DNA of 64,000 nt from Candidatus Woesebacteria bacterium (GTDB taxonomy: Bacteria > Patescibacteriota > Microgenomatia > UBA1400 > PJMF01): positions 553 to 64,552 of the forward strand of contig JAGOOB010000001.1 of the NCBI GenBank assembly GCA_017992725.1, in the 5' to 3' direction. This document shows, piece after piece, positions 4,396-64,000 of the stretch. Below the pieces are notes generated by a model. It saw only the letters and a list, made by a program, of their open reading frames with translations, ran no database searches and was not told where the DNA came from. A program made the translations under genes and the position numbers. Position 1 is the stretch's first letter. Each line of letters begins with the position of its first letter.

Positions 4396-4441
4396 TAGTT
4401 ACTTGATTAAGACTGAGATTACTAGTTACTTGATCAAGACT
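4396..4441. repeat. Two direct copies of a 19-bp element (tagttacttgatNaagact) spaced 27 bp apart, about 50 bp downstream of tRNA-Arg
   Basis: Read directly: ctagttacttgattaagact gagatta ctagttacttgatcaagact. Confidence 0.5.
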
Positions 4442-4601
4442 AGTATTTTCTCAGTTCCATGCTATAATCTATCCTGTCTTAAATTGAAAACGTGTCGAGG
4501 TCCAATATAATTTCCTCCATAGTTCAAAATACAAGACGACCCTAATTTTAGGGTGAGTATTATTATCTTTGCAAATGTTTTTGCAAGGGAAAAAGGAAAA
4601 C

Positions 4602-4958: not shown

Positions 4959-4984
4959 ATCAAGCAATTGTTTTAAAAAGAAAA

Positions 4985-13071: not shown

Positions 13072-13509
13072 TTATTCTACTTTTCCACCTAAGGCTTCAA
13101 TATCTTTTTTAGCGGCTTCACTAACTTTGATACCTTTAACAAAAATTTTACGATTTAATTTGCCTTTTTTAATAATTTTGGCTCCGCGATAACGAGAATC
13201 AATCACTTGGTTTAATTTTAAAGTATCCAAGCTTATTTCTTCTAAATCAATGGTATTTATATCGTTGAAAGTTAATTCTGCAATCAGGTTTAAAGTTTTG
13301 AGCCGACCTTTGCCACGCCACATCGGTAGACGCTGAGTAAGAGGCAACGAGCCTCCTTCAAACCATAAAGGAATTTTGGATCCAACTCGAGATTTTTGGC
13401 CCTTTTGACCACGCCCAACCGTGTGCCCACCTTTACCAGAACCATAACCTCGTCCGAGGCGCTTATTGGATCTAGAACTAGTTTTTTCAAGTTTATTAAA
13501 TAATGACAT
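13072..13509 (-). CDS. rplO: 50S ribosomal protein L15
   Basis: RLGRGYGSGKGGHTVGRGQKGQKSR is the L15 glycine-rich N-terminus. Confidence 0.9.
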   Translation of the reverse strand: MSLFNKLEKTSSRSNKRLGRGYGSGKGGHTVGRGQKGQKSRVGSKIPLWFEGGSLPLTQRLPMWRGKGRLKTLNLIAELTFNDINTIDLEEISLDTLKLNQVIDSRYRGAKIIKKGKLNRKIFVKGIKVSEAAKKDIEALGGKVE

Positions 13510-13512
13510 TGT

Positions 13513-14232
13513 TTACTTTTTACTTCTACTTGTTTCTTTAATAGTTGTTGCTGGCTTGGTTTTTTTGGAAACAGTTTTTTTAGGACTTGCTTCGGCTTTA
13601 GACTCAATTTTTGGTTGAGTTTTTTTGGCGACTTTTTTTTCGGTCTTTGGCTCAATTTTTTTAGCAGTTTCTGCCTTTTCTTTAGCTTCCGCTTGTAGCG
13701 CTGCCATTTTTTCTTGCTCTTCTTTTTCAATTTGAGCGATTGAGCGCAATTTAATATCTTTGATTTTCACTAAGTCGGCAATGTGTTTAAGAGCTTTGAA
13801 AGTGGCATGAACACTGGAAGCTTGATTTTCACTACCTAGAATTTTAGCTACCACATCTCTCACCCCGGCCGCTTCAACCACTGCTCTAACTGGACCTCCA
13901 GCAATTACTCCTGTTCCTTTGTTAGCTGGTTTTAACATCACCTTACCAGCACCTCTTTTAACGGTTACTGCAAAAGGAATGGTGGTTCCATCTAAAGGAA
14001 CAACAATCATTTTCTGTTTAGCTTTTTTAATCCCTTTTTGGATAGCTGACAAAACATCACCAGCTTTACCCAAGCCTACACCTACTTTACCCTTATGATC
14101 TCCAACTACGACGAGAGCAGAAAAACCAATCTGGTTCCCACCTTTGGTTTTTTTAGAGACCCGAGAAATTTTAATGACTTTTTCGTCAAATTCCTTGGGT
14201 TGATTGGGTTTTCTTGAATTATTTCTTGCCAT
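13513..14232 (-). CDS. rpsE: 30S ribosomal protein S5 with a ~75-aa K/E-rich C-terminal extension
   Basis: S5 core (VVVGDHKGKVGVGLGKA, KPANKGTGVIAGGPVRAV), then a long charged tail. Its start abuts the rplO end directly, so no L30 gene is present. Confidence 0.9.
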   Translation of the reverse strand: MARNNSRKPNQPKEFDEKVIKISRVSKKTKGGNQIGFSALVVVGDHKGKVGVGLGKAGDVLSAIQKGIKKAKQKMIVVPLDGTTIPFAVTVKRGAGKVMLKPANKGTGVIAGGPVRAVVEAAGVRDVVAKILGSENQASSVHATFKALKHIADLVKIKDIKLRSIAQIEKEEQEKMAALQAEAKEKAETAKKIEPKTEKKVAKKTQPKIESKAEASPKKTVSKKTKPATTIKETSRSKK

Positions 14233-14237
14233 ATGTT

Positions 14238-14597
14238 TTAAAGATTAATACCGCCTTTTCTTAAAGTGTCAGCTACTTCCTTAATGCGTCCATGATATTT
14301 ATAGTATGAGCGATCAAAAACTAGAGATTTGATTTTCTTATCTTGCAAAATTTTTAATAATTCTTCAGTAGCCAATCGGGTTCGTTCAGTTTTGGTACCA
14401 GTGATTTTTTTACCCTTGGGAAAATCCGTACTAGCCGCTAAAGTTTTTCCTTTTGTATCGTCAATCACTTGTAAGTACAAATGCTTATTGGATCGAAAAA
14501 CGGTTAAACGAGGTCGTTGACTAGTGCCAAAAATCTTAGCTCGCACTCGCTTTTGCCTTTTCAAACGCTGGTTAAGAATTTTTTTGATATTTAACAT
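14238..14597 (-). CDS. rplR: 50S ribosomal protein L18
   Basis: RPRLTVFRSNKHLYLQVIDD and a YHGR C-terminus match L18. Confidence 0.9.
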   Translation of the reverse strand: MLNIKKILNQRLKRQKRVRAKIFGTSQRPRLTVFRSNKHLYLQVIDDTKGKTLAASTDFPKGKKITGTKTERTRLATEELLKILQDKKIKSLVFDRSYYKYHGRIKEVADTLRKGGINL

Positions 14598-15133
14598 TAA
14601 GAGACAGTCTTTCCTGGTTTAGTTCTTACTACTTCATCACTGTAACGAATACCTTTGCCCAAATATGGTTCGGGCGGTCTCAAAGAGCGAATATTAGCAC
14701 TTACTTGCCCCACTAGCTGTTTATCAATACCCTCAACATGAATAGTGTCGTTACCTTCAAGTTTAAAAGTAATCCCTGGTATTGCAGCAACAGTTACTGG
14801 ATGAGAAAAACCCAGAGTCATACTCAAACCCGCTCCTGCACTACTAACCCGATAACCAGTACCAACTAATTTTAAGGTTTTTCTATAAGCTTCGGTGACA
14901 CCAATAACATTATTGGCAATCAAACTACGCATGAGTCCATGGTTGGCACGACTTTGTTTTAAATCATTTTTGCGCTCCACTATCACTTCTTGATTTTCCA
15001 CCTTTACTTTTATGCCTTCTACCATAGGAGTTTTTAATTCACCTTTAGGGCCTTTGACCAATACATAATCATTAGTCACCGTGACAGTTACTTGTTCTGG
15101 AATGCTAATGTTTTTTTTACCAATTTTTGACAT
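14597..15133 (-). CDS. rplF: 50S ribosomal protein L6
   Basis: Two-domain L6 with the PEPYKGKGI-like C-terminal motif. Confidence 0.92.
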   Translation of the reverse strand: MSKIGKKNISIPEQVTVTVTNDYVLVKGPKGELKTPMVEGIKVKVENQEVIVERKNDLKQSRANHGLMRSLIANNVIGVTEAYRKTLKLVGTGYRVSSAGAGLSMTLGFSHPVTVAAIPGITFKLEGNDTIHVEGIDKQLVGQVSANIRSLRPPEPYLGKGIRYSDEVVRTKPGKTVS

Positions 15134-36261: not shown

Positions 36262-37221
36262 TTATTCTTTGACTAACTGGGCAGTAATCACTCCTCGACG
36301 CAAGGTAGTTCCTTCTGGAACGCAGGTCACTAATTTTAATTGACGAACGTCAACTCGTTGAGCAAGAATAAAAGTGTCATCGGCTTTGACTTCAGTTTTG
36401 CCTTGAACAACATAGGTATATTTGACGTTGTCATAGGTTAAATATATTTTGTCACCTTTTTCCAGAGTCATTATTTTACTAAAAATTGAATTGTAACGGC
36501 GAGGATTGTTTTCACTTGGATTATAAAATTGACGCAAAACCGAATGACCAAATATCACTGGAGCACCCAACTGTCCAGGCATTCCAGTTCCAGGATAATG
36601 AATTAAACTTTGATTAAGATCACTTCCACCAACTCGAACCTTGGCATTACTAATCCCTAAACGAGGAATGTCTAGCGTATATTCAATAAACTCGCTTGTG
36701 CTTAATTCTACGTTTTCTAGATCGTCACTAAACCAATTAGTTAGGTCTGTAAAATCAAGATCCTGATCTAAAATCACTGGTTCAGTTTCAACACTGTAAT
36801 CGGTAGTGCTATTTTCTACTATTTCAGTTTGAGCTTGAGCGGAAATTAATGGATTGCCCAACAGTAATTGCGAATTAGGTATTGGAGATAATAAAGTAAT
36901 TTCTTCTTCTTTTTTCCATGGTAAATAATAATCAATAATGGGCCAAAGCGCAGATAAAGCTAACGCCAAGCCAAAAACTATTAATGCCAATGGCAAAAAA
37001 GTTGCCCCCACTCTCACTATTTTGGGTAAGCGGCCCCAAAAATTTAACTGGATTTGCTCATCTAAATTTTTTTCGCCCTGCTGACTGGCTTTATCTTGTT
37101 TCAAAAAGTAATTAACTTTTTTATTCAAGTCTTGTATAGGCACTCCATCTCTTAGTGCTTGGCGATAAAGTTTTAACAACTGTTTTTTTTGTTTGGTCAG
37201 TTGCGGATTTGTTTTAGCCAT
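36262..37221 (-). CDS. Sortase family transpeptidase (membrane anchored)
   Basis: N-terminal TM segment. Catalytic-type motifs: His in PVIFGHS, the Cys motif LVTCVP, and a C-terminal Arg (TLRRG). Confidence 0.7.
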   Translation of the reverse strand: MAKTNPQLTKQKKQLLKLYRQALRDGVPIQDLNKKVNYFLKQDKASQQGEKNLDEQIQLNFWGRLPKIVRVGATFLPLALIVFGLALALSALWPIIDYYLPWKKEEEITLLSPIPNSQLLLGNPLISAQAQTEIVENSTTDYSVETEPVILDQDLDFTDLTNWFSDDLENVELSTSEFIEYTLDIPRLGISNAKVRVGGSDLNQSLIHYPGTGMPGQLGAPVIFGHSVLRQFYNPSENNPRRYNSIFSKIMTLEKGDKIYLTYDNVKYTYVVQGKTEVKADDTFILAQRVDVRQLKLVTCVPEGTTLRRGVITAQLVKE

Positions 37222-37222
37222 A

Positions 37223-39475
37223 TTAATTAATGATGAAATTGAAACGGCTGGAATCTTTTGGTAATTTTTGCAATACTCGACCCATAAAAGCAGGTTGTAA
37301 AATTATTTCAGCCCGATCAATAGTTTCTTGTTCTTCTAAATTATTTTTGGCCTCTTCTAAACTTTTACCCAAAACTAGATCGTTTAATGCTTCTTGGTTA
37401 ATCTTCGCCTTAGCCTTGGCTGATAATTCAGCATCTAGAACTAAACGGTTGCTACCATCGGTCATAAGCTGAGGTTCATCGCTAAGTAAAGATGGTTCTT
37501 CATCTACAAATTCATAATTTTCCGGCAAATCTAACAATAAGACTTCTTCCGCCAATTGCTTTAAATCACTGGATGAGTATTTAACTGCTTCAACTGCCAA
37601 GGTCATTGTTAATGATAAAGTTTCTACCTCATCCCCTTCTTCATGATCGTAAGCAAAATCTACTATCCGACTCTCGCCAGTCGGCACGTAATAAACTCCG
37701 TCTTTGGACTCCTCTTTAAATTCCTTTACAGCAATCGCATACAAATTTTCTTTCAACTGATTCTGTAAATTGTCTAAATCTTTTTGAGAAACCACTCTAA
37801 TTTCCCGACTTGAGCCACCAGAAAAATCTTCAATGGCTGTAGCAGAGTAAGTATTTTCACTAAAATCAGCTACCGCTAACTTACTATCCTTGCCAATATT
37901 TCCTTCCGCCCCAATGTCTTGAGCGGTCAGCGCCACTTCAACACTACCATAATTAATATTCTGCCCATCGTCTTCTTCTTCGGAAACGGCAGCGGGGACT
38001 GTCACTTCTTCATTTAGAACAAAGGCAATGTCTTCATATTTAAAGATCGTGTTTGCTGAAAAAGTTTTATCCGTAAAAGTTTTATTAAATAATTTTACTT
38101 TGCCCTGTGCTTTATCTCCAACCAAACTGATCCCTGTAGTACTCAAGGTGTCTTCACCTTTAATTTCCTTTTCTTCTAACGAGACTTTCAATAAATTTTT
38201 AGTAAAATCCGATTCAGCCAATTGAGGATCTAAAATAATTTCTAAATTTTTTTGCAATATTCTTTCATTAGCCGTCACTTTGACTGTAACATCAGACAAA
38301 AACAAATTATAGACGAAAAATAGTGTGATCAAAGCCAACAAGCCTCCTCCCACACCGATCAGTAAAGATTTTTTATTTTTTTTGAAAAAACGTTTCAAAA
38401 CGCTACTGCTTTTACTTTTTATTTTTTTCTGATCTTGACTGTTCACAGAAGATAAATCAACAGCTTGAAGATTGTCATTAGTTATTTCTTCAGCTTGACT
38501 TTTGGCCAATGGAGTTTGCTGGTGAAGAGCTTGCTCTAAATCAATTTTCTCTGAACTTAAATCAATACCAAAACTGCTAATCTTTTTTTCTGCACTTACT
38601 AGTTCGGGCCCATTACTAGCCACATCCTGATCAGAGATATCTTTATTATCTGTACTGGTCATTTCACTAAATTCTTGAGTTAATTTTGAGGCAAAATTTT
38701 TGGACAACATGTAGCTAGCAGCCAAACTTAAGGATTTAATTAAAAAATCATTGCTTAGAACAACAAATTCTGGCATTTGTAAAAAACCTGACAATGTAGT
38801 CCAGTCAAAAGCCTGCAGTTCTGCCTGCTCTTTGTTTAACACTTTTTGGGGCAAATTTAATGAGGAAAGAAAAACCTTGTTAGGAAAATACTTGCCTTGC
38901 TCGCCTAACTCTTGACTAATTCTGGCTAAACCTTCCTGTAAATCGTCACTAAGTCTAGCGGAGCGGCCAATTTTCAAATTCGCCAGTAATTTTCCGTGTT
39001 TGATTAACAGTAAATCAAAATCTTTGTCACGTAAATAAAGAACAATCGAAGAATCATGAGGATCTTTCATAATTCTAGCTTGATGGATACCTTCTGAAAT
39101 ACTCATTTGTCCCAGAGGCAACAAACTTAAATTATCTGTTAAATCTTTAACTATCACTTTTTTGCTATCCTGTAAATCACCCTTCTCCAGCCAAGTTTCA
39201 TCAAAGACAAAAACACAGTCAGCTACTTCATCCGCCAAAGGACCTAAATCTTGTAAAGCTTGATCAAGTTGTGTTAATAAATCTTGGCGATCAAAATAAG
39301 TTTTAATTGCGGAATATTCTTTAATTTCTTGATTTTTGCTAACCAAAGCAGCTTGCAGTTCCTGATCGCTGAGAATGATGGTAATAAATAACTCAGTTTC
39401 CATCAGCTCTCCTACCGGCATTTTGGTCTCTTGCTCTTTTTTGCCTTTGATAATCTTTTTTAGTAAATTGGGCAT
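37223..39475 (-). CDS. Large hypothetical bitopic membrane protein (750 aa): ~350-aa cytoplasmic N-domain, one TM helix, ~380-aa acidic extracytoplasmic domain
   Basis: TM helix LLIGVGGGLLALITLFFVYNLFL sits mid-protein. No motif was recognised with confidence; the N-domain has a weak actin-like/PilM-like flavour but lacks a clear phosphate-binding DxG. There is no C-terminal sorting signal. Confidence 0.5.
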   Translation of the reverse strand: MPNLLKKIIKGKKEQETKMPVGELMETELFITIILSDQELQAALVSKNQEIKEYSAIKTYFDRQDLLTQLDQALQDLGPLADEVADCVFVFDETWLEKGDLQDSKKVIVKDLTDNLSLLPLGQMSISEGIHQARIMKDPHDSSIVLYLRDKDFDLLLIKHGKLLANLKIGRSARLSDDLQEGLARISQELGEQGKYFPNKVFLSSLNLPQKVLNKEQAELQAFDWTTLSGFLQMPEFVVLSNDFLIKSLSLAASYMLSKNFASKLTQEFSEMTSTDNKDISDQDVASNGPELVSAEKKISSFGIDLSSEKIDLEQALHQQTPLAKSQAEEITNDNLQAVDLSSVNSQDQKKIKSKSSSVLKRFFKKNKKSLLIGVGGGLLALITLFFVYNLFLSDVTVKVTANERILQKNLEIILDPQLAESDFTKNLLKVSLEEKEIKGEDTLSTTGISLVGDKAQGKVKLFNKTFTDKTFSANTIFKYEDIAFVLNEEVTVPAAVSEEEDDGQNINYGSVEVALTAQDIGAEGNIGKDSKLAVADFSENTYSATAIEDFSGGSSREIRVVSQKDLDNLQNQLKENLYAIAVKEFKEESKDGVYYVPTGESRIVDFAYDHEEGDEVETLSLTMTLAVEAVKYSSSDLKQLAEEVLLLDLPENYEFVDEEPSLLSDEPQLMTDGSNRLVLDAELSAKAKAKINQEALNDLVLGKSLEEAKNNLEEQETIDRAEIILQPAFMGRVLQKLPKDSSRFNFIIN

Positions 39476-43580: not shown

Positions 43581-44252
43581 GTGAAAAAATTTTCTATTGC
43601 TCAAATTTGCCAAGCTTTGATCTTTCCTGATTTTTGTCAACACTGTCAACAATTAGGACCAATGTTGTGTGAGTCTTGCTATCAATTGATTGATTTTTTT
43701 TGGCAAGAGGATTACAAAGAATTTTTTAGTGAAAATTTTGATCAAGTTTACTTCGATCAAGTAAAAATCATGGCTGCTTTCAAACCACCCCTTAGTTCGC
43801 TGATTAAAGCACTCAAATATCATCACCACAGTCGAGCTGCTAAATTTTTAGCCCAGATGCTCTATTTTTACGTCAACATTGATTATCACAATATCGACAT
43901 TATTAGCTTCGTACCCATGCATCCACAAAAAAGAAAAAAGAGAGGCTACAACCAGACCCAATTGATTGCTCAAGAATTATCCCTGTGGAGTCAAACACCC
44001 TGTTTAGAATTATTGGTAAAAAGCAAAAATACAAAACCTCAAGCCCAAATTACTAACAAGGATAAAAGATTGAAAAGATTGAAAGACAGCTTTGCCATTT
44101 CCACTTTCTATCAAAATGCTTTATTTAAGCAAAATATTTTACTAATTGATGATGTGATTACCACTGGAGCTACTAGCAATAATGTCAGCCAAATCCTCAA
44201 AAATAATGGAGCCAATTCCATAACAGTATTGGCTTTAGCTTCTAAATTATAA
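43581..44252 (+). CDS. comFC: ComF family protein (ComFC-like): N-terminal zinc ribbon plus phosphoribosyltransferase domain
   Basis: Cys pairs (CQHCQQ...CESC) and the PRTase PRPP-binding motif LLIDDVITTGAT. GTG start at 43581. Confidence 0.75.
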   Translation: MKKFSIAQICQALIFPDFCQHCQQLGPMLCESCYQLIDFFWQEDYKEFFSENFDQVYFDQVKIMAAFKPPLSSLIKALKYHHHSRAAKFLAQMLYFYVNIDYHNIDIISFVPMHPQKRKKRGYNQTQLIAQELSLWSQTPCLELLVKSKNTKPQAQITNKDKRLKRLKDSFAISTFYQNALFKQNILLIDDVITTGATSNNVSQILKNNGANSITVLALASKL

Positions 44253-44268
44253 GCAGTTAGTAATTTAC

Positions 44269-44297
44269 TTGAATTCCTCGAGAGAAAATGCTATAAT
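44269..44297 (+). promoter_or_regulatory. Near-consensus sigma70-type promoter driving ssrA (tmRNA)
   Basis: TTGAAT (44269-44274), a 17-nt spacer, then TATAAT (44292-44297). The mature tmRNA 5' end lies 17 nt downstream of the -10 hexamer. Confidence 0.55.
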
Positions 44298-44313
44298 CAG
44301 GCGTTCATTAACA

Positions 44314-44715
44314 GGGGATGTATTGCATTGACGTCAGTCAACTTTAATCATCGCAGATCATCTTTGGTGAAAAGATGTCAAACAGCACCAATAAATAACT
44401 GTCAAAAACAGTTTAAAAACAGTAGCTAATAAAATCGCCAGTCTTTTTGACTTCGGTTATGTAGCTGCTCCAGCTTTTGCTTAATTGCAATTGCTGGCAT
44501 CTAGTGATGGGCTCTTATCGGCGACTCACATTAGGTGACAACCCAGTCGATTGGCAGAAATAAAGAAGCAGATCGCTTTATTTCCAAGAATATGATCTGG
44601 ATGAAACAAAAAAAGTTTGTTTATTCACTTATTGTTTCAAATCAAAAATAAACTAAATCTGTAGAGATCGTTAAAGATTGATTAGCGGACGCGGGAGCAA
44701 AACCCGCCATCTCCA
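44314..44715 (+). ncRNA. ssrA: Transfer-messenger RNA (tmRNA, SsrA)
   Basis: 5' GGGGATG pairs with 3' CATCTCC-A, including a G3:U wobble (the alanine identity element). The 3' GGACGCGGG-(7-nt loop)-CCCGCC block matches the E. coli tmRNA T-arm stem exactly. An internal ORF reads ...IASLFDFGYVAAPAFA-TAA (44425/44437-44484), a plausible proteolysis tag. CCA is only partly encoded. Confidence 0.75.
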
Positions 44716-44750
44716 CAAAACACTATTTATAGCTTTTAATAAATGATTTT

Positions 44751-46133
44751 TTAAAGCTCTATATCTAAGCAATGGTGCTTTTGACAAATGTTATTTTCTA
44801 AAGATTCTTTTATTTTTAACTCATCACTTGAATAAGCTTGGTTCATAATAAAAAAAACATTTCTACTGGCTAAGCTCAATAATTCATTCTGCAAGTTTTG
44901 ATTTTGTGAACTATCTCTTTCAATTAAGTAAACGGAAGAATTATTTTTATTAATTAATAGGTAATAACTAATTAAATCAACGTCATCCATAAGTAGCACA
45001 ATGCTGTTTGATGGAATTTTTTGTTTAATTGTATTTTGAATATTTTCCCTAAATAAAAAGCCATAGTTATTAAAAGAATTAATCGCCAAGATTAATAAAG
45101 TTATCATCATAAAAAACTCATAACGCAATTTTTGATGAAATTGGGCAAAAACGAATACAACCAATAAACTAAATAACACTAATTGTCTGGCTAAAAAAAC
45201 TGGAAAAAATAAAATCGAGATAATAGTCGCCAAACCAATTGTGCCCGTAGACGAAAAAAATAAAAATTGATTAATTAACGATTTGTCTTTCTTTAAATTA
45301 GTTGTAATTATTACCAAAAATAGCGGAAAATAAAAACCAACGAAGTCATGACCAAACAATAATTTTGTTTGATATACAAACCAATTTAAATCAAAATAAG
45401 GTACACTTCCAGCAATAGCATTACCATTTTTAATGGGTAACAAATAATTTAACAAAATACAAATTTGATAAATAGAGCAAACAAAAAATAAAAACAAACT
45501 GCAAAATATATTTTTACTATGCATCTTTTCTTTTTTAAAAAACAAGAAAATAGCCAAAAAAAACAGTGAAAAAATTAACCAAATAACTCCATAACTAATA
45601 AAAAAACAGATACTTAATAAGAAGCCAATTAAAATAGTTTTATAAACTTTTGGGTAAAAAAAGTTAGAAAAAATGACATAAATTAACAAAAGCATCAAAA
45701 AAATTAATAAAGCATAAGGTCGAACTTGAAAAGACAAATTAATTAATAATGGATGTAGAGAAAATAAACTTATTGCTAAATAACTAGTCTTACGACTTTT
45801 GAAAAATAAACTAATTCTATAAACTAAGTAAATGCTTGGAAAAAACCAAATCAGACTGGTCAAACGTAACCACCAATCCGCATGCCCAATTATTAACATT
45901 AATTTTAAATAAATATAATATAGAGGTGGATGCCTAAAATCGGAAAAATTCCCATTCGAAAAAAATAATTCCCTCCAGCTTAAGTCTGTTGAATTAAAAT
46001 AGGAAATTGCTTCATCATTCCAAAAATCAGTGGTCAATCCATAATAAAAACGAATAATTAACCCAATTAAAAAACTAATTACAGCAATAATTAGCCATCT
46101 ATTTCGACTTACCGATAACCGCATTCTCCCCAT
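44751..46133 (-). CDS. GT-C fold membrane glycosyltransferase (GT39/GT83-like, PMT/ArnT family)
   Basis: 460 aa, about 11-12 TM helices, with a DE motif in the first extracytoplasmic loop (FWNDEAISY) typical of the PMT/ArnT family. Very AT-rich codon usage. Confidence 0.6.
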   Translation of the reverse strand: MGRMRLSVSRNRWLIIAVISFLIGLIIRFYYGLTTDFWNDEAISYFNSTDLSWRELFFSNGNFSDFRHPPLYYIYLKLMLIIGHADWWLRLTSLIWFFPSIYLVYRISLFFKSRKTSYLAISLFSLHPLLINLSFQVRPYALLIFLMLLLIYVIFSNFFYPKVYKTILIGFLLSICFFISYGVIWLIFSLFFLAIFLFFKKEKMHSKNIFCSLFLFFVCSIYQICILLNYLLPIKNGNAIAGSVPYFDLNWFVYQTKLLFGHDFVGFYFPLFLVIITTNLKKDKSLINQFLFFSSTGTIGLATIISILFFPVFLARQLVLFSLLVVFVFAQFHQKLRYEFFMMITLLILAINSFNNYGFLFRENIQNTIKQKIPSNSIVLLMDDVDLISYYLLINKNNSSVYLIERDSSQNQNLQNELLSLASRNVFFIMNQAYSSDELKIKESLENNICQKHHCLDIEL

Positions 46134-48493: not shown

Positions 48494-50158
48494 TTAAATA
48501 TCCCAGATTACCGGTAAGATTATTGGTTCGCGCCGAATTACTTTGAATAAACGACGCGCCAAACGCTTTTCCAAGCGCCGTTTAAGTTCTTCGTCTGTGA
48601 CATTCTTACCAAGATCTTGCACAATTTGCACCGTTTCTTTTTTAATATAGTTCACCACTTCGTCGGCTTCTTTCATAAAAACAAAACCTCGAGAAATAAC
48701 TTGCATTCTGCTGAAATCAATTTTTTTCTTAAAGCGTGGTAAAAGCAAAACAATAATACCTGCTTTAGATAAATTTAAACGGTCAGATAAAACAATCGGC
48801 CCCACATCACCAATACCTAAACCATCAACGGTTTGAGCTGATAAAGATATTTGCTGAAGCACTGAAACTCTTTGTTGATCAATTGCTAAAACTTCACCAC
48901 TTTTTGGTAAGAGGATTTGCCAATCTTGATAAGACAACGGTTTAGCCACTGTTTTTTTGAATAAAGCTCGATGGCGATCAGCTCCACCAATGGGCATCAC
49001 AAATTTTGGTCTAAGTAATTTCAACATTAGCTCCTGTTCAACTCGACTAGCATGACCTGAACGATGAATGCTTGGACGAATTTCTGGATAAACGACGTCT
49101 ACTTCATCAGCTGCCAACTGATCTACCGCTGAGTAATATGGAATTTCGTTACCAGGAATCACATCAGCCGAAAAAATTACTTTATCGCGATTACTAATTT
49201 GTACAATCTGGTGATCTCCATAAACTGCTCTGACCAAAGACGAACCCTCTTGACCCTGACTGCCAGCAATAATAATACAGAGTTTTTCATCCGGAATTTC
49301 TTTGATCTTTTTCTTATCAACCATTAAACCTTTAGGAATATTGAGACTTTTAGATTGAATGGCCGTTTGCACATTTTGCTCAACACTCCGACCAACAAAC
49401 ACTACCTTCCTCCCTAATTCTTGACAAGCATTCACGGTTTGCTGAATGCGGTGGAGATGGGAACTCATTAAAGTCACTAAAATTTTGCCGTTAACTCCCT
49501 TCATCTCTTCTAGTAAAGCTGGGCCTACAGTTGATTCAGAAGGTGTCCATTCATTTCTTTCTACTCGAAGACAATCCAGACAAGCCATCAATAAATCACC
49601 TTGTCGGCCAATTTGTTCAATAAATTCCATATCTGTTAAGTGACCATCAACTGGGTGCTTATCCAATTTGAAATCACTACCATGATAAATTTTGCCGACC
49701 GGAGTCTCTAACAAAATATGTTTCGAATCTGGAACAGAATGAGTAATCGCAACAAATTGAAATTTAAAATATTGGCCCAATGAAAAATTTTGTCGATCAC
49801 CCAAAACTTGGATGTTTTTATCAACTTTTTTATCTAATAAACGATCATGAGCAAACTGCGCTGTTAGGGGTGAAGCATAAATTGGAAAATCTGGCAAATT
49901 GGGTAATAAATAAGGTAAAGCGCCAATATGATCATCATGACCATGACTTAAAATCATCCCAACGATTTTGGCTCCACCTTCAATTTGGTTGAGCAGATAA
50001 GTAATGTCTGGGATTAGCGCATCAACTCCAGGCATGTAAATATCAGGGAAACCAATACCACAATCAATCAACAATATTTCTTGTTCATATTGATATAAAT
50101 AAAGGTTCTGGGTAACTCGACCCATGCCTCCTAAGGCTATAAATTTGAGTTTTGACAT
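48494..50158 (-). CDS. rnj: Ribonuclease J (metallo-beta-lactamase / beta-CASP family)
   Basis: HGHDDHIG zinc motif, a beta-CASP region, and a length (554 aa) typical of RNase J. Confidence 0.88.
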   Translation of the reverse strand: MSKLKFIALGGMGRVTQNLYLYQYEQEILLIDCGIGFPDIYMPGVDALIPDITYLLNQIEGGAKIVGMILSHGHDDHIGALPYLLPNLPDFPIYASPLTAQFAHDRLLDKKVDKNIQVLGDRQNFSLGQYFKFQFVAITHSVPDSKHILLETPVGKIYHGSDFKLDKHPVDGHLTDMEFIEQIGRQGDLLMACLDCLRVERNEWTPSESTVGPALLEEMKGVNGKILVTLMSSHLHRIQQTVNACQELGRKVVFVGRSVEQNVQTAIQSKSLNIPKGLMVDKKKIKEIPDEKLCIIIAGSQGQEGSSLVRAVYGDHQIVQISNRDKVIFSADVIPGNEIPYYSAVDQLAADEVDVVYPEIRPSIHRSGHASRVEQELMLKLLRPKFVMPIGGADRHRALFKKTVAKPLSYQDWQILLPKSGEVLAIDQQRVSVLQQISLSAQTVDGLGIGDVGPIVLSDRLNLSKAGIIVLLLPRFKKKIDFSRMQVISRGFVFMKEADEVVNYIKKETVQIVQDLGKNVTDEELKRRLEKRLARRLFKVIRREPIILPVIWDI

Positions 50159-50159
50159 A

Positions 50160-50819
50160 TTAAAATAATTCCTCTCTTAATTGATTTTTAAAAATTTGAG
50201 TTTCTTCTTGACCAGCTATCCAAGCTAAAATTTTATTAATTTTTTTAAAATCGTTAACAAATGATTCTTTAACTTGACTAGATCGCAGTGCCGCTGCCGG
50301 ATGATACATGGGCAACACAAACAAGTTTAGACCTTGCCATCTTAAACTATGTAGGCGTCCATGAATTTGTGAGATTTTCACTCCCTCCAAAAATTTTGCC
50401 AAACTAAACCGGCCTAGAGTAATTATCAATTTAGGTTTGATTAACTCGATCTCTTTATCTAAAAAAGGTTTAAATGCTAAAATTTCTTTTGGCAATGGAT
50501 CACGATTATCTGGCGGTCTAACTTTAATAATATTACTAATAAAAACTTTTTCTGCTGGAAGATTAATTTCCTCAAGAGTTTTACGTAATAATTGCCCAGA
50601 CCGACCAACAAAGGGGCGGCGCTGAATTGATTCATAATAACCGGGAGCTTCCCCAATTAACATGATCTCGGCATTTTGACTACCTTCACCATGAACAATA
50701 TCCTGAGGTTTTTTGGCTAAAGGCAATTGAGCAACATTCTCTTCCAATAACAATTGCAAACTAGATAAATCTTTAACTTGCTGTAACATTTCCTTCAATG
50801 GCAAATCAGTCTTTGACAT
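50160..50819 (-). CDS. Uracil-DNA glycosylase, family 4
   Basis: Motif A (GEAPG) and the PFVGRSGQLL block are characteristic of family-4 UDG. Confidence 0.8.
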   Translation of the reverse strand: MSKTDLPLKEMLQQVKDLSSLQLLLEENVAQLPLAKKPQDIVHGEGSQNAEIMLIGEAPGYYESIQRRPFVGRSGQLLRKTLEEINLPAEKVFISNIIKVRPPDNRDPLPKEILAFKPFLDKEIELIKPKLIITLGRFSLAKFLEGVKISQIHGRLHSLRWQGLNLFVLPMYHPAAALRSSQVKESFVNDFKKINKILAWIAGQEETQIFKNQLREELF

Positions 50820-50839: not shown

Positions 50840-51904
50840 CTAATAACTAGGCAGGAAAATCTTAACATTATCTGGTTTAATCACCACTTCTTCAAAGCCT
50901 CGTTCCACAATAATTCTAGCGGCTTTTCTTACCGCACCTTTAAGCGTGCGTTGTAACGTACGTACTCCAGCATCAAAACCTAAAGGTCTAACTAACTTAG
51001 GCCAAACCGCTTCATCAATCTTAAATTGGTTTTCTTTCAAACCAGCTTCTTTGAGAATTTCAGGCAAAATATACTTTTTGGCAATCACAATTTTCTCTTC
51101 ATCACTGTAGGACGGCATATCAATTCGTTCCATCCGGTCTAAAACAGCGGCTGAAATACGACGGGTGTTGTTACAAGTGGCAATAAAAATCGCTTGACTT
51201 AAATCTACCGGATAATTAATGTAATTATCGACAAAAGCATGATTTTGCGCAGGATCTAGCAGTTCAACCAGAACACCCATAATATCATTATTGGCTTCTT
51301 CCGCGGATCGATCGATTTCATCAAGTAAAATCACTGGATTCATCGTTTGGGCAGTACAAAGACCCTGAATTACCGCCCCAGGTTGAGCCTCCAAAATTAA
51401 GCGTGATTCACCACGCAATTCTTTGGCAGAAGCCATTCCTCCAACCGGAATTCTTAAAATTTGGCGGTTCAGGGCTTCCGCTAAAGAATATGCAAAAGTA
51501 GTTTTACCTGTTCCTACCAAACCAACTAGCAATAATACTGGCGCAGAAAATTCCTGATCAGCAAAATTTTGTTTTTGTAAATTAAGAATAGCTAAATACT
51601 CCAAAAATCGATCTTTAACCTCTTTTAAACCATAATGATGTTCATCAAGAACTACTTTAGCCTGTTGAATGTCTAAAGTGTCTTCACTTTTTTTACCAAA
51701 TGGGATCTTGGTTACCCAGTCTAAGTATCGAGAAACTTTATCATATTTCTCGTCATAATTGCCCAATTTTGCACTCCGCTCCAAAAAAACTAATTCTTTT
51801 TCCAGCTTTGATTGTAATTCTTCGGGAAGTTGAACTTGTTTAATTTTAGCTCGTAACTCATCAAGCTCCTGATTCAATATTTCATCAGAGTTAAGTTCAG
51901 ACAT
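50840..51904 (-). CDS. Lon-derived AAA+ ATPase: coiled-coil plus AAA+ module only, no N-terminal substrate domain and no protease domain
   Basis: YLDWVTKIPFGKKSE ... HYGLKEVKDRFLEYLA ... LLLVGLVGTGKT ... LLDEID ... VELLDP ... FIATCN ... DRME ... AGVRTLQR align motif-for-motif with the LonA AAA+ module. The protein ends where the Lon proteolytic domain would start. Confidence 0.8.
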   Translation of the reverse strand: MSELNSDEILNQELDELRAKIKQVQLPEELQSKLEKELVFLERSAKLGNYDEKYDKVSRYLDWVTKIPFGKKSEDTLDIQQAKVVLDEHHYGLKEVKDRFLEYLAILNLQKQNFADQEFSAPVLLLVGLVGTGKTTFAYSLAEALNRQILRIPVGGMASAKELRGESRLILEAQPGAVIQGLCTAQTMNPVILLDEIDRSAEEANNDIMGVLVELLDPAQNHAFVDNYINYPVDLSQAIFIATCNNTRRISAAVLDRMERIDMPSYSDEEKIVIAKKYILPEILKEAGLKENQFKIDEAVWPKLVRPLGFDAGVRTLQRTLKGAVRKAARIIVERGFEEVVIKPDNVKIFLPSY

Positions 51905-51911: not shown

Positions 51912-52430
51912 TTAAGATTGTTTTGCCCTAAGCGTCAAGCCTAAACCGATACTTAACATCGCAACAGCTAAAAATAACAAACTAACGGTGGTAGAACCAG
52001 CATTAGGCAGGGTAGTGGTGCTAGTTGTAGCAACAGTTTCAAGATTGCCACTGGCAGTACTACTGTTACCAATTGTTAACACAAAATCTAAAGTCTCTGT
52101 TGCTGTAGATAAATCAAATTGATGCTCTCCTTCACTTAAAGACGAGATTAGCGTACTCCAACTACCCTCCTCATCTGCAGTCGCCGTTCTAGTTAAGTCA
52201 TCAATAGTAATTGAAATAACGGCCGAGGGTGAAGCTAAACCAGTTAAGGCAAAAGTCCCCCCAGAATAATTATATTCCTTCAAACTCCCACCCAAATCTA
52301 AATTAGAAACATCCATGGTACCTATGGCTGTAATTTGCAGCGCGGCCGCCCTTACTTTACTACTAAAAAAGAGTGGGAAAATAATCAATAAAGAGATAAG
52401 ACAAATTACAATTTTTTTCATATTTCTCAT
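51912..52430 (-). CDS. Secreted, cell-wall-sorted protein with an LPNAG sorting signal (sortase substrate)
   Basis: N-terminal signal peptide and S/T-rich body. The C-terminal LPNAG, hydrophobic stretch (VSLLFLAVAMLSIGLGLTL) and RAKQS form a classic tripartite sorting signal. Confidence 0.7.
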   Translation of the reverse strand: MRNMKKIVICLISLLIIFPLFFSSKVRAAALQITAIGTMDVSNLDLGGSLKEYNYSGGTFALTGLASPSAVISITIDDLTRTATADEEGSWSTLISSLSEGEHQFDLSTATETLDFVLTIGNSSTASGNLETVATTSTTTLPNAGSTTVSLLFLAVAMLSIGLGLTLRAKQS

Positions 52431-56950: not shown

Positions 56951-57886
56951 TTACTCACTTAAGAATCCTCTTAAAATGAGGTCCTCGGCCTCTTTAGCCG
57001 TTAGACCCCGGCTTCTGAGGTAAAGAATTTGTTCAGCTGACAATTTACCGATTGACGCCTCATGAGTCACTTGGGCATCCTGATTTGCTACTAATAATTC
57101 GGGAATCAAGGTTAATTTTGCTGTTTTGTCCAACATTAAGGCTCCACAATCTAAATGACCTTTAGCCGCAGCTTGAGCAATGATTTTAGAGCGTGCCTTC
57201 ACTGTTGCATTTTTTCTACCAACAATGCGGAGAGTGGAGATAGCGTTGGCGCCCGCCCCTTCTAAATAGGCGGTGTCTGTTAAGTCAATTTTCGTTTCCT
57301 GACAGTCCGCCAAAATCTTTAAGTCGGAGCGGGCGCCTTTGGCTAAGTGCATTTGCGCTTGCATGTTCATGACGGCGGCGGCGGCCTCAATTTTATAAGT
57401 GTAAGCGAGACTAGCACCTTCCTCTAAAAAGAATTCATAATTAGTGCTAACTCGATCATTTTTATCCCAGTCGTGTAAATGTTGATAATAAAGACTAGAT
57501 CCTTTTTTGAGAATTAATTTTCCCTTTGCCTGATGAGAACGAAAGTCACCTGCTGTAGTTGTAGTCAATGTACTTGCTGACTCACAAGTCCCTGTTAAAT
57601 CAACGTAAAGACCGGTTTCAATAACTATTAAATTATTAAGTTGTTGTTTAGTTCCAGGTTTATCTAGGGACAAACAAGCTAAAAAAGAACAATCTGGCTG
57701 TTCTTTGATCCAAATGAGATAACCTTCCTTTGGCTGGTCACCAAAGTACTGTCTAGTCCAAGGCAGATTATTCCAAGCATCCACAGAACTCATCACTTCA
57801 GAACCAGACATGTGGAGTATTTCTTCGATATGATGATCTAGTTGTTTATAAGCAGTTTTGACAGCTTTCACATTTTTGGTAGCCAT
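56951..57886 (-). CDS. sufD: SufB/SufD-family Fe-S cluster assembly scaffold protein (short, SufD-like)
   Basis: The C-terminus EQILYLRSRGLTAKEAEDLILRGF is the SufB/D hallmark. The start overlaps sufC by 40 nt. Confidence 0.7.
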   Translation of the reverse strand: MATKNVKAVKTAYKQLDHHIEEILHMSGSEVMSSVDAWNNLPWTRQYFGDQPKEGYLIWIKEQPDCSFLACLSLDKPGTKQQLNNLIVIETGLYVDLTGTCESASTLTTTTAGDFRSHQAKGKLILKKGSSLYYQHLHDWDKNDRVSTNYEFFLEEGASLAYTYKIEAAAAVMNMQAQMHLAKGARSDLKILADCQETKIDLTDTAYLEGAGANAISTLRIVGRKNATVKARSKIIAQAAAKGHLDCGALMLDKTAKLTLIPELLVANQDAQVTHEASIGKLSAEQILYLRSRGLTAKEAEDLILRGFLSE

Positions 57887-58565
57887 ATTTTTTGATAGTG
57901 CTAAGCACTTTTTTAATATCTCGACTCTGACAAATTAATTCTCCTTGACGCAAAATGGCAATGCGATCTGGTTTGATTTCTTCTAAAACTGCTCCCGAGT
58001 GAGTGATGATGAGCAGAGCCATTTGACTTTTTTTTAATTCTTTTTTTAAGGCAGTTAAGACTATTTGCAAATTTTCCATGTCCAAGCCAGAATCCAACTC
58101 ATCAATCACTAACAACCGAGGATGTTGATTTAAAACTTGAACTAATTCAGCAATCTTTTTTTCTCCTCCAGAGAAATTAACATTGATGTCCCTGAATAAA
58201 AGAGAGTCTGCTAACTGGTAATCATAATCTCCATCATGAATCTCTTGAATTAAATTCAGTAAAGTGAACAATTCAACTCCTTTGATCGCTGGTGGCTGTT
58301 GCCAAACAAAAGCAAGACCTAGCTTAGCTCGCTCTTCCGGACTTAAACTCAACAAATCTTTTTTGCGGAAAGTAATTTGGCCACTCACTACCTGATAAGT
58401 TTCATCACCCAATAAAGCTCTCACTAAAGTGGACTTACCAGCCCCATTGGCGCCCATGAGCGCTACTAATTCCCCTTCATTAATAGTTAACGACAAGTCT
58501 TTAAGAATAGCTTGATCATTGACTGCCACATTGAGCTTGTTGATCTCTAAAATTTTTTGCATCAT
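57846..58565 (-). CDS. sufC: Fe-S cluster assembly ATPase SufC
   Basis: ABC ATPase with Walker A (GANGAGKST), the LSGGEKK signature and Walker B (LLVIDELDSG); SufC-typical length. Confidence 0.88.
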   Translation of the reverse strand: MMQKILEINKLNVAVNDQAILKDLSLTINEGELVALMGANGAGKSTLVRALLGDETYQVVSGQITFRKKDLLSLSPEERAKLGLAFVWQQPPAIKGVELFTLLNLIQEIHDGDYDYQLADSLLFRDINVNFSGGEKKIAELVQVLNQHPRLLVIDELDSGLDMENLQIVLTALKKELKKSQMALLIITHSGAVLEEIKPDRIAILRQGELICQSRDIKKVLSTIKKYGYQKCESCQNCL

Positions 58566-61553: not shown

Positions 61554-63824
61554 CTAGCGACTTCTGTTACCTGGACGGTTTGAGTGAAAATTAGATCGGT
61601 TATTGTTGTGATCAAAACGTCGATTGCTGCTACCAGTTCGGGAACTACCTCGACTTTCTTGTTGCTGAGCTTCCTCTTCAGGAGTTAGAGCCGTGAGAGC
61701 AACCTTACCATCAAGACCAATTTCTTTGATTCTCACTTTCAGCTGATCACCTAGTTTTACTTTTTCATGAGCATCTCTAACGTAATCAGTTGACATATTA
61801 GAAACATGCAATAAGCCTTCTCGGCCAGCCAAATATTCAACAAAGGCACCATAATTTTCTACTCTCGTCACCTCTCCTTGAAACTCGTCACCGACTTCGA
61901 CTTCTCTAACTAAAGCATCGATCATACTCAAAGCTTGATCAATCGCCTGTTGGTCTGGAGAAGAAACATTGATCACTCCCTGCTTTTTCTCCTTATCTTC
62001 AACCACATTAACTTCAGCTCCAGTTTTTTCGATGATATCTTTGATAACACTGCCACCTGAGCCAATAACGGTACCAATTTTGTCAGCTGGAATCACTAAT
62101 TGAGCTACTTTTGGAGCAAATCGACTAATTGTTTGGCGTGGGCTGGCAATCGTCTTGAGCATTTCTTGCATAATATGCATCCGACCTACTTTAGCCTGAG
62201 AAAGAGCCTTAACCAAAATTTCTTTATCAATCCCTTTTAATTTAATATCCATTTGTATAGCAGTGATCCCTTTTTCACTACCTGCCACTTTGAAGTCCAT
62301 ATCACCAACGTGATCCTCTAGACCCTGAATGTCAGACAAAATCACATTCTTTCCCTTACCATCAGATATTAAACCCATCGCAATCCCAGAAACTGGTCGA
62401 GCAATAGGCACCCCAGCCGCCATCAAAGATAAGGTAGACCCACAGACCGAAGCCTGTGAAGTTGAACCATTGGAACTCATAATTTCACTAACTACCCGAA
62501 TAGCGTAAGGAAAATCTTCTTGAGAAGGAATCATAGGCAGTAGCGCTCGTTCTGCCAAAGCGCCATGACCAATTTCTCGTCTCTTTGGATAACCAATTCG
62601 ACCTGCTTCTCCAGAAGCATAAGGAGGCATATTATAGTGGTGCATATAATGGCGCACTCTTTCACCAGTAATATCCTCAACAGTTTGACCTAGCGAAGGA
62701 TCAGCTAAAGTTACTACAGTCAAAGCTTGAGTAGCGCCGCGCTTAAACATAGCACTCCCATGAGCTCTGGGTAAAACATCAATTTCAGTCCAAATCTGTC
62801 TAATCTCATCAGCTTTTCGGCCATCTGGACGTTCTCCATCTTCAAGGATCATTCTTCTTGCTTCATCTTTTTCTAATTGAAAAATAATGTCGGCTACCAG
62901 GCTAGTGGTAATTTCCTGATCGTCATCTGTGGCTTGCTCTGCTTTTTCGGCCACAATTTGATCAATCAACTCAGTTAAACCAGGATCTTCTAAATGAGCT
63001 CTTTTAATAACCGCCTGGTGAATTTCTGCACTGTATTTTTCCTTAATTTCAGCTTGAAGTTTTTCCGTCAAAACTACTAACTTTTGATCTGGCTCTGCAA
63101 CTAAATTGACTTTTTCTTTGCCAATTTCTTGAGCAATTTTTTCAATTTCCACACAAACTTTTGATAAAACTTGTTGGGCTTCAATTAATGCATCAACTAT
63201 GATTGATTCATCAACCTCTTTTGCTCCTGCTTCCACCATAACAATGGAAGATTTGGAAGCGGAAACAATTAAATCTAAATTACTTTCTTCTAATTCACTA
63301 TTTAATGGATTAAAAATGAATTGTTCTTTGGCACCATTTTTAGCCAAAGCAAGCCTGGCCCCAGCTACTGGCCCATCAAAAGGAATTTCGCTGATTTGCA
63401 GGGCTAAACCGGCTGCCAGCAGGGCAATCATGTCTGGTTCATTTTCACCATCATATGACAACACCGTATTGATAATTTGTACTTCATGTTTAATACCTTC
63501 GGGAAATAGAGGACGCATAGTCCGATCAATAACTCTCGCTCTGAGAATCGCATCATCGGTCGGTCGACCTTCTCTTTTTACCCAACGCGAACCCTTAATA
63601 ATGCCACTAGAATAAAGTTTTTCTTCAAATTCTACTGACAAAGGAAAGTAACCAAGATTCACTTGGTGACCGAGGGCAACAGTAGTGTGCACTACTGTTT
63701 CTCCACATTGAGCAAGTACCGCAGCACTTACTTGTTCACTAAATTTACCAACGGTAAATTTAATAGTTTTATCACCGACTTGCACATCACGATGATATTG
63801 GTTTTCATAACTTGGATAAGACAT
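61554..63824 (-). CDS. pnp: Polyribonucleotide nucleotidyltransferase (PNPase) with a G/R/N-rich C-terminal tail
   Basis: Two RNase PH domains followed by KH and S1 domains. The start was set to the ATG at 63824 (MSYPSYENQY), which has an AGAAGGA RBS; the track's upstream extension was rejected. Confidence 0.93.
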   Translation of the reverse strand: MSYPSYENQYHRDVQVGDKTIKFTVGKFSEQVSAAVLAQCGETVVHTTVALGHQVNLGYFPLSVEFEEKLYSSGIIKGSRWVKREGRPTDDAILRARVIDRTMRPLFPEGIKHEVQIINTVLSYDGENEPDMIALLAAGLALQISEIPFDGPVAGARLALAKNGAKEQFIFNPLNSELEESNLDLIVSASKSSIVMVEAGAKEVDESIIVDALIEAQQVLSKVCVEIEKIAQEIGKEKVNLVAEPDQKLVVLTEKLQAEIKEKYSAEIHQAVIKRAHLEDPGLTELIDQIVAEKAEQATDDDQEITTSLVADIIFQLEKDEARRMILEDGERPDGRKADEIRQIWTEIDVLPRAHGSAMFKRGATQALTVVTLADPSLGQTVEDITGERVRHYMHHYNMPPYASGEAGRIGYPKRREIGHGALAERALLPMIPSQEDFPYAIRVVSEIMSSNGSTSQASVCGSTLSLMAAGVPIARPVSGIAMGLISDGKGKNVILSDIQGLEDHVGDMDFKVAGSEKGITAIQMDIKLKGIDKEILVKALSQAKVGRMHIMQEMLKTIASPRQTISRFAPKVAQLVIPADKIGTVIGSGGSVIKDIIEKTGAEVNVVEDKEKKQGVINVSSPDQQAIDQALSMIDALVREVEVGDEFQGEVTRVENYGAFVEYLAGREGLLHVSNMSTDYVRDAHEKVKLGDQLKVRIKEIGLDGKVALTALTPEEEAQQQESRGSSRTGSSNRRFDHNNNRSNFHSNRPGNRSR

Positions 63825-64000
63825 ATCCTTCTTTCTTCTTTGCTCTATAAGAGCTACAAACAAAACTGGGGAAATATGAGTATTCTGAAAAATTGATAAA
63901 ACTTATCAACTTTTTTGAATCCTCACCTAACACCCCAAATTTTGCTTTCTTAATTATTAACAGAGAACATTATAGCAAACTTTAGCAAATATCTCGCTGG

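Follow-up and report, generated by a model that had tools for sequence, protein, structure and literature searches.

To our knowledge, the ATPase and the protease of Lon are normally fused in one polypeptide chain, and this architecture is almost universal. LonA proteins (E. coli Lon, Meiothermus taiwanensis LonA, human LONP1) carry an N-terminal substrate-binding domain and an S16 Ser-Lys protease domain, together with a AAA+ module, a Lon-type lid and a helical bundle that precedes the AAA+ module. LonB and LonC, which belong to the same superfamily, also retain the protease domain; the AAA+ module of LonB has a membrane insertion, and the ATPase of LonC is degenerate. ClpX and HslU, members of the same broad AAA+ group as Lon, are stand-alone AAA+ ATPases with separately encoded peptidases and are thus a precedent for an arrangement in trans. 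Precedents also exist for domain-loss paralogues of AAA+ proteins. In Meiothermus LonA, Tyr397 of pore loop 1 and Trp431 of pore loop 2 contact the translocating substrate, and degradation needs both residues (PMC8503904).

The ORF at positions 50840–51904 (minus strand) of the stretch analyzed here, a 64-kb window of DNA from a Candidatus Woesebacteria bacterium, encodes a protein with the AAA+ module, Lon-type lid and preceding helical bundle of LonA (37–43% identity), but with neither the N-terminal substrate-binding domain nor the protease domain. LonA and the stand-alone family to which this protein belongs share the Walker A Lys, the acidic pair of Walker B, both sensors and the Arg finger, whereas the second position of Walker A is changed from Pro to Leu, and the pore-loop-1 Tyr and pore-loop-2 Trp of LonA are replaced by an acidic or aliphatic loop signature. 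Compared with LonC, the pattern is the opposite, i.e., an intact ATPase and no protease. ClpX and HslU keep aromatic pore loops and defined peptidase-docking elements, whereas the pore-loop aromatic residue is not kept in the ORF 50840–51904 product, which was matched by the NCBIfam ClpX and HslU-type models at E > 1e-3 only. Because the fused Lon architecture is almost universal, a natural Lon motor that lacks the protease and has rebuilt its pore loops would be somewhat surprising to specialists.

Domain architecture of the ORF 50840–51904 product

The ORF starts with ATG, encodes 354 amino acids and ends with a TAG stop codon, and the ORF itself together with the Pfam, NCBIfam and PDB matches identifies it as a complete gene for a stand-alone LonA-derived AAA+ ATPase. 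Pfam assigned two domains to the protein, AAA (residues 124–261, E = 1.5e-18) and Lon_lid (residues 285–336, E = 1.3e-9). Neither Lon_C (PF05362) nor LON_substr_bdg (PF02190) was matched in this HMM check for the missing protease domain, which had been proposed in the first-pass annotation. The NCBIfam lon model TIGR00763 was covered from profile position 250 to 568 of 795 (324.2 bits; cutoff 608.05), and the E. coli-type Lon model NF008053 from position 248 to 579 of 784 (224.2 bits; cutoff 891). The closest solved structures were those of LonA and mitochondrial LONP1, with residues 237–565 of Meiothermus Lon aligned at E = 5e-72, far beyond chance. Judged from these matches, the product corresponds only to the middle of LonA, from the last stretch of the N-terminal helices through the AAA+ module to the Lon lid. 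The first-pass annotation had described a Lon-derived stand-alone AAA+ ATPase without the N-terminal substrate and protease domains, and the Pfam result, the partial NCBIfam coverage and the PDB Lon matches bear this out. Its placement of the start inside the Lon helical region agrees with the alignment to Meiothermus Lon from residue 237 and with profile positions from ~248–250, and the end, which it placed at the expected start of the protease domain, coincides with the end of TIGR00763 coverage at 568 of 795.

Four parts can be distinguished along the chain, all encoded on the minus strand. Residues 1–115 (51560–51904) match the last part of the N-terminal helical domain of LonA, i.e., the end of the long helix and the helical bundle. 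This part aligns with Meiothermus Lon from residue 237 and with the E. coli-type profile from position 248, and contains five helices predicted by AF2 (residues 2–23, 28–47, 50–66, 79–89 and 94–113). Residues 116–265 (51110–51559) form the AAA+ nucleotide-binding (large) subdomain, in line with the Pfam AAA match at residues 124–261 and with the similarity of the structure model to Lon AAA+ modules. Residues 266–340 (50885–51109) form the Lon-type lid (small alpha) subdomain, which includes the sensor-2 residue Arg315; it contains the Pfam Lon_lid match at residues 285–336, and the PDB Lon alpha-domains 4git and 1x37 align to residues 263–351. Residues 341–354, with the stop codon (50840–50884), are a conserved C-terminal tail that corresponds in the family alignment to the LonA linker just ahead of the protease domain, and here the protein ends.

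The AF2 model was built on a diverse 20-sequence family alignment and reached a pLDDT of 89.8 and a pTM of 0.83. This run superseded one with shallower input (16 sequences, at least 65% identity), which gave a poor model (pLDDT 63.5). In Foldseek, the model superposed on Lon AAA+ modules with TM scores of 0.78–0.86. Its boundaries nearly coincide with those of the engineered E. coli Lon AAA+ fragment in PDB 6n2i (338–344 aa), where residues 13–351 of the query match residues 10–339 of the chain (TM 0.86/0.90). However, fragments of the 6n2i type are laboratory truncations of a protease and have canonical pore loops, whereas the ORF 50840–51904 product is encoded by a natural, conserved gene. 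Of the five features that define a LonA protease (TIGR00763 / MEROPS S16), the product has the Lon-type AAA+ module with its lid; the other four are missing, and the annotation "Lon protease" is therefore unfit for it.

The surroundings of the gene were searched by tblastn; the ten probes for Lon_C and the ten for the Lon N-domain came from full-length Lons and gave positive results in 15/15 canonical-Lon control loci. At E ≤ 1e-3, no coding remnant of either domain was detected in any frame of the window, and the same probes found neither domain within ±10 kb in 76 related loci of the Candidate Phyla Radiation (CPR), a group of ultra-small bacteria. Likewise, clustering of neighbor ORFs across 66 loci revealed no peptidase family among the conserved neighbors. 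These validated probes, together with the neighbor clustering, rule out a protease or N-domain encoded nearby, and neither the Lon_C search of the window and the 76 loci nor the clustering of the 66 loci yielded a candidate partner peptidase. The proposal that no protease is encoded beside the gene thus held, the next genes on the same strand being those for a family-4 uracil-DNA glycosylase (UDG) and RNase J.

Conservation and relationships of the stand-alone family

The same protein, identical to the ORF 50840–51904 product, was found on many independent contigs (indexed in 293 blocks of the collection). In six independent assemblies, the identical protein was accompanied by the same neighbors and the same 20-nt spacer between the gene and the UDG gene. 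Nearly all of the best 120 protein clusters (65–100% identity to the query) were 351–355 aa long, five were 363–438 aa long, and Lon_C was present in none of the 120. Among the best 80 genome matches in one-genome-per-species data, orthologues were present in ~65 CPR (Patescibacteria) genomes. The 66 orthologue ORFs measured in CPR loci, mostly from species-representative genomes, were 341–472 aa long, and all of them ended at query positions 351–354. Comparison of the gene with a 92%-identical orthologue gave a dN/dS of 0.04, with dS near saturation.

These data refute the view that the ORF is a pseudogene fragment, or an assembly or frameshift artefact, of a full-length lon. Nothing but the truncated architecture itself speaks for this view. 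Against it stand the start region and end point shared by ~65 species, the dN/dS of 0.04, the six independent assemblies with an identical gene and 20-nt UDG spacer, the lack of Lon_C or Lon N-domain coding remnants in any frame of the window, and the fixation of new family-specific residues. A frameshift, a pseudogene or an assembly break of lon is accordingly ruled out by end-point conservation, dN/dS, the six assemblies and tblastn. The first-pass annotation had named a Lon_C domain hidden behind a frameshift or stop, and a pseudogene, as findings that would speak against its assignment; tblastn was negative, ~65 species had the same architecture, and the dN/dS was 0.04. The sequence data thus indicate a conserved gene under strong selection, apparently a core gene of the large and still little-understood CPR.

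We define the CPR stand-alone Lon-AAA family as proteins of 340–470 aa that end at the LonA ATPase–protease linker, form a clade apart from LonA, and share the Walker A signature G-L-x-G-x-GKT, the pore-loop flank signature and the sensor-2 block RP-L-G-[FY]-D-A-G-[IV]-R. The ORF 50840–51904 product has these defining features, its pore loop following the variant of its own clade. By reliable record titles, members occur in Woesebacteria, Pacebacteria, Amesbacteria, Levybacteria, Shapirobacteria, Daviesbacteria, Roizmanbacteria, Gottesmanbacteria, WWE3 and Dojkabacteria. Some family records are labelled Saccharibacteria or Nomurabacteria, and many other labels evidently belong to mislabelled MAGs. 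None of the best 80 genome matches was a canonical Lon from a CPR genome.

In some natural Lons (for example, P0121 from a Dependentiae MAG, P0122 and P0125), a single Lon_C is preceded by two or three Lon-type AAA+ modules in tandem. As in the ORF 50840–51904 product, some Lon-type AAA+ and lid modules of these proteins are not directly followed by a protease domain, but the modules are fused in one chain that ends in Lon_C. In a neighbor-joining (NJ) analysis, 76 stand-alone sequences were compared with 76 AAA+ modules of canonical LonA and 59 of tandem-AAA+ Lons; the stand-alone proteins fell into one clade, sister to canonical LonA. In a 110-sequence subsample, the bipartition between the stand-alone family and canonical LonA plus the tandem-Lon modules was recovered in 100/100 NJ bootstraps. 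The tandem-Lon modules were further from the stand-alone family than canonical LonA was (mean distance 1.49 vs 1.20). The NJ phylogeny thus rules out that the stand-alone proteins are derived from, or equivalent to, the N-terminal modules of tandem-AAA+ Lons.

We found no curated NCBIfam model that covers the family, whose members are currently annotated as "AAA family ATPase", "hypothetical protein" or, wrongly, "Lon protease". Full-text literature searches on protease-less Lon, on Lon in CPR/Patescibacteria/Saccharibacteria and on Lon-like ATPases returned no description of it. The stand-alone Lon-AAA family across CPR/Patescibacteria is apparently undescribed and uncharacterized. It is best described as an architectural and functional variant within the Lon/AAA+ kind that is conserved across CPR lineages.

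ATPase motifs and pore loops

The 20-sequence family alignment, which spans 38–100% identity, was used to examine the functional motifs. Invariant in this alignment were Walker A (Gly128–Thr135, with Lys134), the Walker B residues Asp195 and Glu196, the sensor-1 residue Asn245, the Arg finger Arg257 and the sensor-2 residue Arg315. In the query, Walker A reads GLVGTGKT (residues 128–135; 51500–51523, minus strand), Walker B reads VILLDEID (residues 191–198; 51311–51334, minus strand), and the family-invariant Arg257 lies in VLDRME (51134–51136, minus strand). All residues for ATP binding and hydrolysis are thus conserved in the family, and ATPase activity is predicted. The Walker A signature G-L-x-G-x-GKT differs from GPPGVGKT of canonical LonA, with Leu at position 129 in 93% of the stand-alone family vs Pro in 99% of canonical LonA. 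The sensor-2 block likewise reads R-P-L-G-[FY]-D-A-G-[IV]-R in the family vs Y-T-R-E-A-G-V-R in LonA. The claim of the first-pass annotation that every AAA+ motif is kept stands for Walker A and B, both sensors and the Arg finger, but the alignments show that the substrate-translocating pore loops are altered.

Pore loop 1 of the query (LRGESRLILEAQPG, residues 163–176; 51377–51418, minus strand) is remodelled, and the diverged pore loop 2 follows Walker B. In the pairwise alignment, Tyr397 of Meiothermus Lon, the pore-loop-1 Tyr with a role in substrate contact (PMC8503904), corresponds to Ile170, and Trp431 to Ala204. Position 170 is Tyr in 77/77 canonical LonA sequences. Among the 76 stand-alone members, this position is variable (Phe in 15, Ser in 11, His in 8, Tyr in 8, Asn in 6, Arg in 6, Leu in 5, Ile in 4, and others). 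The flanking positions are changed as well: Arg of canonical LonA at position 167 is replaced by Ser in 61/76 members, Ile/Val at 171 by Pro in 40/76, Gly at 172 by Asp/Glu in 63/76, and Met/Leu at 174 by Glu in 71/76. The general family loop has S-[RK] before and [DE]-A-E-P-G after its variable center. Most of the family has this largely acidic signature, whereas the clade of the window has an aliphatic one (L-x-L); there, the loop reads S-R-L-x-L-x-x-x-P-G with Leu169 and Leu171 invariant; the query has Gln174 instead of Glu.

The flanking changes are both new and conserved; the pore loop has been rebuilt under selection and has not simply decayed. By alignment, the canonical substrate-gripping pore-loop residues are lost in the stand-alone family. 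Phe or Tyr is still present at position 170 in 23/76 members, and together with the aliphatic L-x-L loop in the clade of the window, this means that weak threading may persist.

Outside the ATPase core, the family also conserves the C-terminal tail N-x-K-x-[FY]-[LI]-P-x-[YW], which usually forms the very end of the protein; in some lineages, the tail is followed by 5–8 extra residues (…PDQGPLS). Some members have long Q/P/S-rich N-terminal extensions.

Genomic context and candidate functions

In the window, the genes around ORF 50840–51904 lie on the same strand. A family-4 UDG gene (50160–50819; TIGR00758, 168.6 bits, cutoff 125.3) is located 20 nt downstream and is followed by the gene for RNase J (48494–50158; TIGR00649, 427 bits, cutoff 400), a conserved downstream neighbor of the family. 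An ORF 7 nt upstream (51912–52430), identified from the ORF list and neighbor clustering, encodes a secreted protein of 172 aa that has an LPNAG motif at its C-terminal end, along with a membrane helix and a basic tail. Only in the closest relatives does this ORF neighbor the family gene. The TIGR matches and ORFs agree with the neighbors that had been noted from the sequence, i.e., UDG and RNase J on one side and the LPNAG protein on the other. The PNPase gene (61554–63863), which neighbor clustering identified as the ancestral immediate upstream neighbor, is here displaced by ~10 kb through inserted genes. The insertions between pnp and the Lon-AAA gene in this clade comprise genes for SOD, suf genes, rpiB, rpe, a LOG-like gene, pfkB and the gene for the small secreted LPNAG protein.

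Clustering across the 66 loci gave the ancestral order, on one strand, of nusA - infB - (~309-aa protein) - rpsO - pnp - [gene] - (udg) - rnj - ftsK - (HTH_25 protein). The pnp gene was immediately upstream in 27/66 loci, with gaps of mostly 13–60 nt. The rnj gene was immediately downstream in 18/66 loci and within five genes in 39/66; eleven of the 18 adjacent pairs had gaps of ≤36 nt, and two had a 4-nt stop/start overlap. Both pnp and rnj flanked the gene in 14/66 loci. Five or six loci of another clade have the gene in divergent orientation to groES-groEL. We know of no obvious link between ftsK and RNA decay. For this reason, and because the pairs rpsO-pnp and rnj-ftsK are no less conserved, we read the rpsO-pnp-[gene]-(udg)-rnj-ftsK block as mainly frozen synteny of housekeeping genes. 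The order pnp … rnj-ftsK, without the Lon-AAA gene, is also known from Firmicutes and Actinobacteria. Therefore, the adjacency to pnp and rnj is a lead to a link with RNA turnover and not a demonstration of it. That the gene keeps its place in the rpsO-pnp-[gene]-rnj-ftsK block suggests constitutive expression along with RNA-turnover and translation genes and a role in housekeeping. A component of anti-phage defense (BrxL and others) is ruled out, as PADLOC gave only weak generic AAA matches (best DolB, E = 2e-9, 35 bits) and the neighbors are housekeeping genes.

The reading that we prefer, and to which we give about an even chance, is that the ORF 50840–51904 product is a functional non-proteolytic AAA+ ATPase, descended from LonA, that would act as a ring-forming remodeller or chaperone with predicted ATPase activity. 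The Arg finger acts on the ATP of the adjacent subunit, and because this trans-acting residue is conserved, the protein would assemble into a ring, or at least into an oligomer with shared active sites. ATP turnover would then serve to remodel or hold a client that is not degraded. Such an activity would be chaperone-like or a disassembly activity, and not the Tyr-mediated threading into a protease chamber that is typical of Lon. However, isolated LonA AAA+ fragments tend not to hexamerize without the protease domain, and a partner peptidase or a full-length Lon may be encoded elsewhere in the genome.

The first-pass annotation had offered an ATPase working in trans with another peptidase, or an unfoldase remnant. 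In a split protease, the ATPase would dock on a peptidase that has its own gene (such as ClpP, HslV or a protein with Lon_C only) and hand substrates to it, as ClpX and HslU do. The chain ends exactly at the LonA ATPase–protease linker, the ATPase site is intact, and the conserved tail N-x-K-x-[FY]-[LI]-P-x-[YW] could be a docking element. We nevertheless consider a split protease unlikely: Lon_C is found neither within ±10 kb in the 76 CPR loci nor in the 64-kb window, the conserved neighbors include no peptidase gene, and a feeder translocase is expected to keep the aromatic pore-loop residue, which is unconstrained in the family. Substrate translocation by Lon depends on the Tyr of pore loop 1 and the Trp of pore loop 2; their lack of family-wide conservation weakens both the partnership in trans and the unfoldase, and "remnant" is a misleading term for a conserved monophyletic family with newly fixed residues. 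A regulatory or decoy subunit that forms mixed rings with, or stacks on, a canonical Lon encoded elsewhere and modulates its activity is very unlikely. Conservation of the Arg finger and of the ATPase elements between subunits speaks for such a subunit, and the existence of natural tandem Lons with two or three modules indicates that extra Lon AAA+ tiers are structurally tolerated. However, the family shows no specific kinship to the tandem-Lon modules (distance 1.49 vs 1.20; bipartition 100/100), and the lack of a canonical CPR Lon among the best 80 genome matches counts weakly against the idea.

The gene neighborhood raises the alternative of an accessory factor in RNA decay that assembles, scaffolds or remodels a degradosome-like complex or RNP substrates together with PNPase and/or RNase J. 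The adjacency of pnp (27/66), of rnj (18/66; within five genes in 39/66) and of both (14/66) is consistent with it, as are the shared strand, the short gaps and the 4-nt overlap with rnj in two loci. Several members have long, disordered, Q/P-rich N-terminal extensions that would suit such a factor, and LonA binds nucleic acids. On the other hand, the whole block reads as frozen synteny, with rpsO before pnp and ftsK after rnj equally conserved, and pnp … rnj-ftsK without the gene is known from Firmicutes and Actinobacteria. In the window, pnp is 10 kb away and the UDG gene lies between the Lon-AAA gene and rnj; one other clade has the gene divergent from groES-groEL; and a pore loop with acidic residues is poorly suited to holding RNA. 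This role therefore appears improbable to us. A bolder version, which we hold to be quite doubtful, is that the Lon motor of CPR bacteria became a non-proteolytic partner of PNPase and RNase J, whose genes flank it in the ancestral order, and acts as the ATP-dependent part of a minimal RNA-decay or RNP-remodelling complex and perhaps as the sole Lon descendant retained. If such an RNA-decay machine were real, a fold of protein unfoldases would serve RNA or RNP work in very small genomes.

Identification of the client on which the preferred non-proteolytic remodeller or chaperone would act would correct metabolic reconstructions in which the stand-alone Lon-AAA gene is counted as a Lon protease. 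A lineage-wide family that has kept the motor, discarded the protease and rewritten the gripping loops is a ready-made experiment on a lone Lon AAA+ ring, and what its client is could tell how genome-reduced CPR cells control the quality of their proteins or RNA.

Extended and tandem-module relatives of the Lon-AAA protein

Several members of the Lon-AAA family carry long low-complexity extensions enriched in Q, P, S or N (proteins P0132, P0136, P0138, P0143 of 669 aa, P0069, P0089, and, at the C-terminus, P0160). The N-terminal extensions reach up to about 320 aa, and the C-terminal extension of P0160 is about 190 aa long. These extensions are presumably disordered. The Lon-AAA protein of the window has no low-complexity extension.

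Many long proteins (about 900-1700 aa) encoded outside the window have two or three Lon-type AAA+ plus lid modules arranged in tandem, with one Lon_C protease domain after them. This architecture was observed in P0121-P0130, P0133, P0134, P0137, P0139, P0140 and others, with P0121 originating from a Dependentiae MAG; none of these proteins is encoded in the window. The canonical pore loops were kept in the extra modules of some of these proteins and not in those of others. In P0128, the two modules do not differ in their Walker A, pore-loop-1 or Walker B strings, so that this module pair may stem from a recent duplication or be an artefact of assembly.

Gene neighborhoods and strain-level variation

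The Lon-AAA gene of one CPR subclade is located head-to-head with groES-groEL, instead of downstream of pnp (L039, L051, L057, L058, L064 and one more locus, each of about 10 kb). A DnaJ-like gene was found 7-12 genes upstream of the Lon-AAA gene in 14 loci. Many of the species-representative MAGs behind loci L012-L076, which carry a CPR-type Lon-AAA gene with CPR-type neighbors, bear non-CPR titles ('uncultured Gammaproteobacteria', 'uncultured Pseudomonadales', 'Candidatus Methanoperedens sp.'). Because these titles appear to be placeholders or wrong labels, taxonomy based on them is unreliable.

The metagenome variant L003 encodes a Lon-AAA protein identical to that of the window. When L003 regions 3428-4966 and 13421-14653 were compared with window positions 56951-58565, the SufC/SufBD-like genes of L003 were found to be called as three shorter ORFs, and they may thus be disrupted. 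Between its RNase J and FtsK genes, L003 also has an inserted gene for a class-II aminoacyl-tRNA synthetase (tRNA-synt_2b plus HGTP_anticodon). These differences from the window indicate strain-level rearrangement around the Lon-AAA locus.

Other features of the window

Immediately upstream of the Lon-AAA gene, a 172-aa ORF (51912-52430, minus strand) encodes a product with an N-terminus that resembles a signal peptide and with an LPNAG motif, hydrophobic helix and basic tail at its C-terminus. This arrangement is that of a sortase substrate, and the product weakly matches sortase-dependent surface proteins in NCBIfam (E 2e-4). The two genes are adjacent in the closest relatives only (6 loci). 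At a distance of 15 kb lies the gene for a sortase-domain protein (36262-37221, minus strand), next to a 750-aa ORF (37223-39475) that had no family match.

The G+C content falls to 0.285 at 44001-46000, compared to about 0.37 elsewhere. This region coincides with the gene for a 460-aa multi-pass membrane protein (44751-46133) that weakly matches PMT_2 glycosyltransferases. The low G+C could reflect an acquired gene, or merely the composition of a very hydrophobic protein.

A compact one-carbon/folate module lies at 1-3561 on the plus strand, which is notable for a reduced CPR genome. It consists of the SHMT gene, which is cut short by the window edge, and the genes for formate-tetrahydrofolate ligase and FolD.
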